Assembly: GCF_000002075.1 (NCBI RefSeq)
Contig: NW_004797271.1
Coordinates: 2,817,757 to 2,881,756, forward strand
Source: Aplysia californica
Lineage: Eukaryota
Direction of reading: 5' to 3'
Length of the DNA stretch: 64,000 nt
Part shown: positions 2,173-2,745 of the stretch, in pieces
Layout of the letters: the number at the start of each line of letters is the position of its first letter
How positions within the stretch are numbered: position 1 is the stretch's first letter
Notes under the pieces: model-generated
Databases searched by the model: none
What the model was told of the DNA's origin: nothing
The model's input: only the letters and a program-made list of their open reading frames with translations
Translations under genes and position numbers: made by a program

Positions 2173-2745
2173 TTAGCGACGCGCCCTGCGACTTCTGCCC
2201 CTCCTCCCGCAGCTTCCGGCCCGGCGGCGCATGTTTCTCGACGAGCGCTTCCGGCTGGATCTCGTACGCCGGCGGGATTGGGCCCTTCGTCTCCTCTTCG
2301 CCCGGTTCGCTTGTGCTGCTCTCTGGCGACGATCTCGGAGAGAAGCTTTCCTTGCCAAACGACTCTGTCCTCTGAATCCAAGCATTTGCCATAGACGCAC
2401 AAGACTGCTGGGTCGCATTTGGCGTTGGTTAGTAGTCCTCTTCTCCTTTCTCGCGCGTTTCGAGCGGGCACATGCACCACCTCCGCAAGAGTCCTCGGGG
2501 TCTCGACTCGCTTGCTGCATGGCACATTCCCTCTTCCCGGGTTCCGAGTCGTCGATTCTATTCGCGAGGAACCGCAGATACTCCGGCATTGTATCGCGCA
2601 AAACCTTGTCCAATAGTGGTTGGCTAGACATGATGGTAGCGTCGCAAAATTGCTTCTGGCTGCAGGCCAAAAGTTGTCCTTGTTTCTCTGTTACGCCCAA
2701 GTTGTTTAGGCGCGGACCTCCGGGACGACCAGGAAGTAATGGCAT
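2173..2745 (-). CDS. Intronless 190-aa protein with Arg-rich (protamine-like) C-terminus; function unknown
   Basis: ATG-to-TAA ORF coinciding with a GC/CpG-rich island that ends near the stop codon; last 62 aa contain 28 R and 3 K, ending ...GRRGRSRRARR*. Confidence 0.55.
   Translation of the reverse strand: MPLLPGRPGGPRLNNLGVTEKQGQLLACSQKQFCDATIMSSQPLLDKVLRDTMPEYLRFLANRIDDSEPGKRECAMQQASRDPEDSCGGGACARSKRARKEKRTTNQRQMRPSSLVRLWQMLGFRGQSRLARKASLRDRRQRAAQANRAKRRRRAQSRRRTRSSRKRSSRNMRRRAGSCGRRGRSRRARR

Follow-up and report, generated by a model that had tools for sequence, protein, structure and literature searches.

Protamines are arginine-rich proteins of about 3 to 10 kDa (PMC13251019), whose precursors are commonly cleaved at the N-terminus and whose genes are rarely annotated (PMC12216123). 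The bee precursor P2 starts with a weakly charged leader of 69 residues, and a beetle precursor comprises 177 residues (PMC12216123). Molluscan sperm proteins and protamines have been traced to histone H1 (PMC5550673, PMC5011920).

Two further systems are compared below, the replication-dependent histone genes (RF00032, SLBP, U7) and the virion proteins of adenoviruses and of Polintons or adintoviruses. Viral Arg-rich core precursors such as adenovirus pVII and pre-Mu have about 190 residues with Arg-rich tracts, and the cleavage rule of adenain places Met, Leu, or Ile before the Gly site. Adenain is described to trim virion proteins (PMC11071296), and the histone hairpin is regarded as a hallmark of replication-coupled messages (PMC5011920).

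Here, we describe an open reading frame (ORF) of 190 codons in a 64,000-nucleotide stretch of Aplysia californica DNA (contig NW_004797271.1, positions 2,817,757 to 2,881,756), referred to as the window. We give about even chances to the reading that it encodes a protamine precursor, in which a neutral leader takes up 92 residues and a basic end the remaining 98.

The P-type protamine precursors of bee (P2), Tribolium (177 residues), squid, Monodonta turbinata (106 residues), and Murex brandaris resemble the ORF protein in a leader of low charge, in the Arg clusters that come after it and also contain Ser, Gly, and some Cys, in the mature size range (as predicted for the ORF protein), and in the missing annotation in genomes (PMC12216123, PMC13251019). 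The ORF differs in its histone-type 3′ hairpin, its protein has no sequence match to any of them, and the expression and cleavage of this protein are predictions. The molluscan protamine-like (PL) proteins (Spisula PL-I, the Mytilus PL-II/PL-IV precursor, and PL-III) resemble the ORF protein in coming from a mollusc, in being basic, and in a cleaved precursor (PMC5550673), which for the ORF protein is a prediction. However, they are related to H1 and abound in Lys as well as Arg, whereas the ORF protein contains 5% Lys and no winged-helix likeness was found; judged by these sequence features, it is not a PL protein. Metazoan replication-dependent histone genes share with the ORF the lack of a coding intron, the short flanks, and a 16-nt hairpin on the sense strand at the usual distance. 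In contrast to them, the ORF is solitary, its product is no histone, a purine-rich element is missing, and a sequenced contig runs 47 nt past the hairpin; because of the nonhistone product and the missing downstream element, the ORF would not be classed as a histone gene. Adenovirus pVII and pre-Mu and the Polinton or adintovirus virion proteins resemble the ORF protein in a length near 190 residues, in Arg-rich tracts, and in a Gly-Gly before the basic part, in the ORF protein a candidate cut site, but homology is absent, no protease, capsid, polymerase, or integrase gene lies nearby, and terminal repeats are lacking.

An intact reading frame with a neutral leader and an arginine-rich end

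The ORF and the segments of its protein are as follows:

2173..2745, minus strand: uninterrupted, stop-free reading frame of 190 codons
2470..2745, minus strand: leader, residues 1 to 92, neutral to acidic (pI 5.3, net charge −1, 5 Cys)
2476..2484, minus strand: Gly88-Gly89-Gly90, at the acidic/basic boundary
2362..2469, minus strand: basic linker, residues 93 to 128 (8 Arg, 3 Lys, net charge +10)
2176..2361, minus strand: Arg-rich tail, residues 129 to 190 (45% Arg, 5% Lys, net charge +30, 7.6 kDa)

A first-pass annotation of this DNA had reported the 190-residue ORF at the same positions, which we confirm, and had omitted the strand, which is minus (2745 to 2173); the plus-strand frame at 2173..2745 contains four stops. 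The Arg-rich C-terminus that it described is likewise present, with 28 Arg and 3 Lys in residues 129 to 190, which end in RRARR directly before the stop. The less basic N-terminal part exists as a neutral leader, but its end was placed at about residue 125, whereas the charge boundary lies near residues 92/93.

The tail has Arg runs starting at residues 151, 158, and 173, two RSSR motifs, and 9 Ala in 62 residues. It is Arg-rich and clustered in Arg, with little Lys and a pI of about 12 (the ceiling of the calculator used), which are the features by which protamines are recognized, making residues 129 to 190 a candidate mature protamine. Over the whole protein, Arg amounts to 23% and Lys to 5%. 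The predicted masses are 7.6 kDa for the tail, 11.9 kDa for the whole basic part, and 21.9 kDa for the precursor, with the tail within the 3 to 10 kDa of mature protamines; the layout fits a precursor with a removable leader, and cleavage is a prediction. The leader, in which no hydrophobic signal or membrane stretch was found, is a candidate removable pro-piece, and Gly88-Gly89-Gly90 is a possible cut site.

The first ATG has a weak context, with T at position −3, while A occupies this position at two further in-frame ATGs, 2631 (M39) and 2589 (M53), either of which could be the true start instead of M1. The single-sequence structure model is weak (pLDDT 61.8, pTM 0.29) and contains no strands; it predicts helices at residues 30 to 40 and 42 to 64 of the leader with modest confidence and folds the tail into one long helix.

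The first-pass description of a GC- and CpG-rich island also holds, the ORF being the most GC-rich among 1171 gap-free segments of 573 nt. Its GC content is 0.58 versus 0.40, and its observed/expected CpG ratio is 1.13 versus 0.55 for the window. In 2000 dinucleotide shuffles of positions 2150 to 2760, an ATG-started ORF of at least 190 residues appeared 9 times and a stop-free frame of 190 codons 47 times, while 28 Arg in 62 open codons were never reached (0/2000, maximum 20). Shuffling the tail alone gave the same outcome (0/2000, maximum 24), and the next-richest 62-codon stretches of the window contain 18 Arg, one of them in a GA microsatellite and the other in the frame antisense to the ORF. 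The ORF uses all six types of Arg codon and is therefore not a simple repeat. A fresh frameshift of an H1 tail was considered as a source and rejected, since no other frame of the tail is rich in Lys and CGN makes up 17 of the 28 Arg codons. At the codon junctions of the leader, 11 CpG were observed against 8.3 expected, compared with 12 against 25.8 in the SHPRH exon. This undepleted CpG of the leader fits an unmethylated inducible gene, for which CpG is expected to stay undepleted (PMC11050768). Altogether, the uninterrupted frame looks like a real orphan gene candidate.

Searches for relatives

The orphan status proposed in the first-pass annotation is upheld by blank or noise-level results in protein, family, structure, virus, and metagenome searches. 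A word-indexed search of 5.8 billion clusters (104 to 333 residues) scored 8000 candidates for the whole protein, none of them at E 0.01, and returned 10 candidates for residues 1 to 125, none at E 1. Phmmer against 1.84 billion representatives gave no match at E 0.001, and the PDB sequences gave none at E 10. An exact look-up in a collection of 15 billion proteins found none of five start variants, although the neighboring BORCS5 is annotated, which agrees with the claim of an unannotated gene. The Pfam search of four overlapping frames yielded two matches (E 0.23 and 0.72) and no RNA-binding or chromatin domain, and PHROGs yielded no match to the ORF protein. The whole protein has a sole Atlas match (score 0.77), which we treat as a lead, to an arthropod cluster that bears the name arginine/serine-rich coiled-coil protein; residues 1 to 128 have no Atlas match. 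Pattern matches were confirmed neither in 2.9 million viral contigs (0/33) nor in metagenome contigs (0/596). The fold search gave no PDB match and a best viral match with E 1.5, blanks that mean little because the model is so weak.

Histone relatedness was looked for separately, by comparison with eight histones, and the score of the ORF was reached by 108 to 917 out of 1000 shuffles of the protein and by 73 to 198 out of 200 of the DNA. An H1 winged helix had no match in Pfam or the PDB, and the scores against two H1 proteins and their profile stay within those of the shuffles. By eye, the leader had looked similar to H4, to H2B, and to the final part of the H1 globular domain, an impression that the shuffles rejected.

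Neighborhood and copy number

The ORF lies in a window with the following features:

2882..3664, strand not applicable: assembly gap of 783 N, beginning 136 nt upstream of the first ATG, which would hide a promoter or an upstream exon
1685..1938, strand not assigned: high-copy miniature transposon of 254 nt, separate from the ORF, with perfect 13-nt terminal inverted repeats that end in TTAA
~6000-6835, minus strand: LINE fragment with RNase H and zf-RVT (Pfam)
40870-41697, plus strand: LINE fragment, C-terminal piece of a reverse transcriptase (by eye)
2062..2784, minus strand: X11 contig of 729 nt, with 723 letters aligned without differences or gaps and 6 letters unaligned

The last coding exon of BORCS5 lies about 7.9 kb from the ORF on the same strand and matches Aplysia californica BORCS5 with 100% identity along 77 residues, which marks the host as this species; its identity to the other seven matches is 78 to 84%. 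The miniature transposon is presumably piggyBac-like, given the TTAA in its inverted ends, and is abundant in all four sequencing runs mapped. Short pieces of another high-copy repeat are found at 1205-1246 and at about 1085-1135, and their loose ends resemble the ends of 1685-1938. Elsewhere in the window, an intact-looking Mutator-like transposase of 632 codons (58646-60544, plus strand; Pfam PF20700, E 2.8e-65) without a 3′ hairpin sits between exons of a SNF2/RING gene resembling SHPRH, and a long imperfect hairpin at 18689-18765 (minus strand), which scores weakly against microRNA families (E 0.15 and 0.79), is probably derived from a repeat. No histone gene, transposase match, or paralogue of the ORF was found in the window with the tblastn and blastn queries tried, and no repeats bracket the ORF except for AT-rich chance matches. 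The neighbors are the miniature transposon, a LINE fragment, and BORCS5, with no viral gene near the ORF outside the unsequenced 783-nt gap.

Four of 24 listed public sequencing runs were mapped to positions 700 to 2881 at 80% likeness, X11, X4, and X8 as contigs and X17 as raw reads. Part of the stretch is present in 16 of the 24, none of these being recorded as RNA, a listing on which we base no claim. Besides the identical X11 contig, the X4 contig covers 2207-2660 with one difference, which is synonymous (Ser86), and the X8 contig covers 2291-2447 without differences. Run X8 is filed under another organism label and, being identical over 157 nt, says nothing on divergence. The contig depth over the ORF is 2 to 7, with one near-identical contig per run, whereas the repeats at about 1205-1246 and 1686-1940 recruit many divergent contigs, with depths up to 434, 5979, and 237,504. 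This comparison gives no sign of a divergent copy family, as far as contigs, which can drop rare variants, reflect copy number. The first-pass annotation had named a multicopy transposable element with a different real frame as one case that would refute it; no sign of this is seen in the single contig per run, the lack of bracketing repeats, or the Pfam and transposase searches of the other frames. The ORF is continuous in the genomic DNA and in the X11 contig, in agreement with the proposed lack of introns, although the gap could hide an upstream exon.

Positions 700-1064 and 1284-1429 have zero depth in every run mapped. Such coverage, limited to the ORF and the sequence next to it, would be compatible with a transcript, but the contig runs had been selected because they contain the stretch, their library type is unrecorded, and their contigs show neither RNA ends nor strand. 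Run X17 (poly(A) RNA, 14.8 million reads, tissue unrecorded) has zero depth across 2014-2743, which fits tissue restriction, a message without poly(A), or silence.

A histone-type hairpin behind the ORF

Two hairpins follow the stop codon:

2109..2124, minus strand: histone-type 3′ stem-loop of 16 nt, with 6/6 perfect pairs and a 4-nt loop, 48 nt past the stop
2152..2166, minus strand: second, small hairpin of 5 bp, 6 nt past the stop

The stem-loop (2124-2109) is on the sense strand of the ORF and was overlooked in the first-pass annotation. The Rfam family Histone3 (RF00032) matches positions 2129-2088 with 25.6 bits (E 0.0001 for a 982-nt region and 0.0066 for the whole window), which is the only match in the window and does not reach the gathering cutoff of 34 bits. 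The consensus pattern occurs once in the 64 kb and in none of 100 shuffles. For calibration, we used at least 123 metagenome loci with the exact hairpin. Among the matches listed, 26 Histone3 matches at 20 histone loci score between 25.6 and 46.4 bits, and 8 of these 26 matches at true histone loci are below 34 bits, so that the ORF hairpin ties with the weakest. Its distance of 48 nt from the stop falls within the 21 to 58 nt of most histone genes fetched, again among the matches listed.

The purine-rich downstream element is absent, with at most 5 purines per 10 nt compared with 6 to 10 at 22 histone sites among the matches listed, which come from other animals. The X11 contig extends 47 nt beyond the stem, and this together with the absent element makes the U7 signal look lost; the stem-loop may have no role beyond SLBP binding or may be a relic. 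Messages of replication-dependent histone genes end about 5 nt past the hairpin and have no poly(A) tail; behind the ORF, neither AATAAA nor ATTAAA occurs in 2172-1940. Among germline histone messages, H2B.1 and H2B.W have both the hairpin and a poly(A) signal (PMC8857922), and in the fly, maternal histone mRNAs receive their poly(A) by way of SLBP and independently of U7 (PMC11997800). The best single matches of the 12 nt past the hairpin to histone spacers look good, but this likeness was dropped because its average score was reached by 33 of 500 random 12-mers. In plus-strand orientation, the second hairpin (2152-2166) approximates a shortened histone hairpin, and no plus-strand gene ends there.

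Histone-type hairpins at other loci

A histone tblastn match was found at 16 of the 123 loci, with five more histone ends recognized by reading, among the matches listed and with many contigs being short. More frequent are transposases: among the matches listed, a transposase C-terminus precedes the hairpin in sense orientation at 63 of 136 sites (59 loci), mostly by no more than 60 nt, whereas 2 hairpin sites have it in antisense orientation only. These numbers are based on seven transposase queries, two of them with weak Pfam DDE_3 matches, and many of the loci probably share host species and are therefore not independent. The transposases are Tc1/mariner-like and pogo-like (loci between L003 and L122, e.g., L010:965-1280, L032, L057, L080, L089, L074, and L105), suggesting that such transposons may use histone-style 3′ ends. 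The literature searched, at the level of titles and abstract openings, contained no report of a transposase with a histone hairpin. Because so many of the hairpins listed follow transposase ends, a hairpin does not prove histone descent, and that of the ORF could stem either from a mobile element or from a histone gene with a coding sequence too diverged to be recognized.

Other nonhistone genes precede such hairpins as well. On L002 (1-1715), three small nonhistone genes, one for a PPPDE peptidase and two with a hydrophobic stretch, are each followed by a perfect hairpin and adjoin a partial P-loop ATPase-like ORF; from its gene content, the locus looks like a fragment of a Polinton-like or other DNA virus. 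The 2.3-kb viral contig L130 contains Rep-like and capsid-like ORFs, named by eye, and a canonical histone hairpin (1235-1253, minus strand) about 88 nt past the capsid-like gene. The hairpin of L076 follows an HNH nuclease ORF (Pfam), and those of L104, L025, L088, and L123 follow a Lys/Arg-rich orphan end, an orphan, and two probable transposase ends, with 25 to 54 nt between the ORF end and the hairpin at these five loci. An Arg-rich frame lies upstream at 3 of 144 hairpin sites among the matches listed, none of them being a counterpart of our ORF by reading and one being a shifted H1-tail frame.

Possible functions and origins

As a protamine gene, the ORF would be transcribed in the spermatogenic cells of the ovotestis, and SLBP would bind the hairpin, by which the message would be stored or timed. 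The 3′ end would be formed by polyadenylation or read-through instead of a U7-directed cut, which we propose because the purine-rich element is missing. In the precursor, the leader would mask the basic tail; proteolysis in developing sperm would take place near Gly88-90 or further in, and a basic product of 62 to 98 residues (7 to 12 kDa) would replace the histones and pack the DNA. The first-pass proposal of a host DNA-condensing protein or protamine stands as far as the protamine-like composition behind a neutral leader is concerned, as in published precursors (PMC12216123), but there is no H1 domain. This argues against a protamine: neither an H1 winged helix nor a histone fold is detectable at the protein, DNA, or profile level, though protamines are held to be H1-derived. 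The zero depth in run X17, the lack of an orthologue in the searches, the weak score of the hairpin, its missing downstream element, and the presence of such hairpins behind nonhistone genes weigh against this reading as well. No Aplysia protamine was found in the literature searched, which consisted of titles and abstract openings with most subscription papers lying outside it, nor in 12 of the 42 supplementary files of PMC5440852. A protamine gene with a histone hairpin likewise had no precedent there, a weak negative as the primary papers on molluscan PL genes fall outside the search.

Protamines act after replication has ended. The hairpin, however, marks replication-coupled messages (PMC5011920), and this favors another basic nuclear protein, of chromatin, the nucleolus, or RNA binding, whose expression the hairpin would time together with the histones, such as in dividing cells, in the germline, or in polyploid cells. 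The Atlas lead to an arginine/serine-rich coiled-coil protein cluster and the Ala-containing tail modeled as one long helix point in the same direction, but an RNA-binding or chromatin domain is missing in Pfam, RSSR occurs only twice with no run of RS repeats, and the poly(A) run X17 has zero reads; we consider such a protein unlikely. A silent locus would explain the zero reads as well, and the lack of a homologue in any search, the degenerate hairpin flanks, and the long frames that GC-rich islands yield by chance (47 of the 2000 shuffles being stop-free for 190 codons) would suit a gene in decay, an ORF recently born de novo in a GC-rich island, or a noncoding transcript with a leftover hairpin. 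Against a nonfunctional or barely functional locus of this kind, which we judge improbable, stand the Arg enrichment far above the shuffles, in a single frame and with mixed codons, the frame that is intact up to a stop just ahead of two hairpins, and the three contigs with one synonymous and no disrupting difference.

The first-pass annotation had weighed a viral core protein as the other candidate. The ORF would here be a stranded gene for a core-protein precursor, a relic or domesticated, that a Polinton-like element or DNA virus left behind together with a histone-type hairpin of the kind found in such elements, and a viral protease would cut the precursor after Gly-Gly. It is an uninterrupted orphan, rich in GC and CpG against the host background, it has Gly88-90 at the acidic/basic boundary, and histone-type hairpins are present on the virus-like contigs L002 and L130 and behind the L076 HNH nuclease. 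The glycines are preceded by Asp-Ser-Cys, unlike the Met, Leu, or Ile of the adenain rule. Homology, fold, and neighbors lend no support: relatives are missing among the 2.9 million viral contigs and in PHROGs, the best viral fold match (E 1.5) comes from a weak model, no viral gene lies nearby and the gap measures merely 783 nt, no terminal or direct repeats surround the ORF except AT-rich chance matches, and none of the 3 Arg-rich frames at 144 hairpin sites among the matches listed is a counterpart. A viral core origin is improbable, too.

Coming back to the protamine precursor, its gene might still be run by the histone stem-loop (SLBP) pathway while the protein has lost every histone trace, either as a fossil of the step from histone to protamine or as a gene recruited from a hairpin-bearing virus or transposon, a scenario that we put forward as speculative and rather doubtful.

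Implications for protamine origin

To our knowledge, nearly every argument on the histone origin of protamines draws on the H1-like domains of bivalves, tunicates, and spiders. If the gene is silent or somatic, it is merely another orphan ORF. The hairpins behind transposases (63 of 136 among the matches listed) indicate that this signal is not exclusive to histones in invertebrates and open a mobile-element route. If the protamine reading is true, the ORF would be, as far as the literature searched reaches, the first sperm nuclear protein gene named in the sea hare, and it would allow simple tests of protamine origin, by SLBP binding and 3′ end mapping, in a laboratory-reared animal. A histone-type RNA end without a histone domain would then be a second, independent marker of protamine origin.
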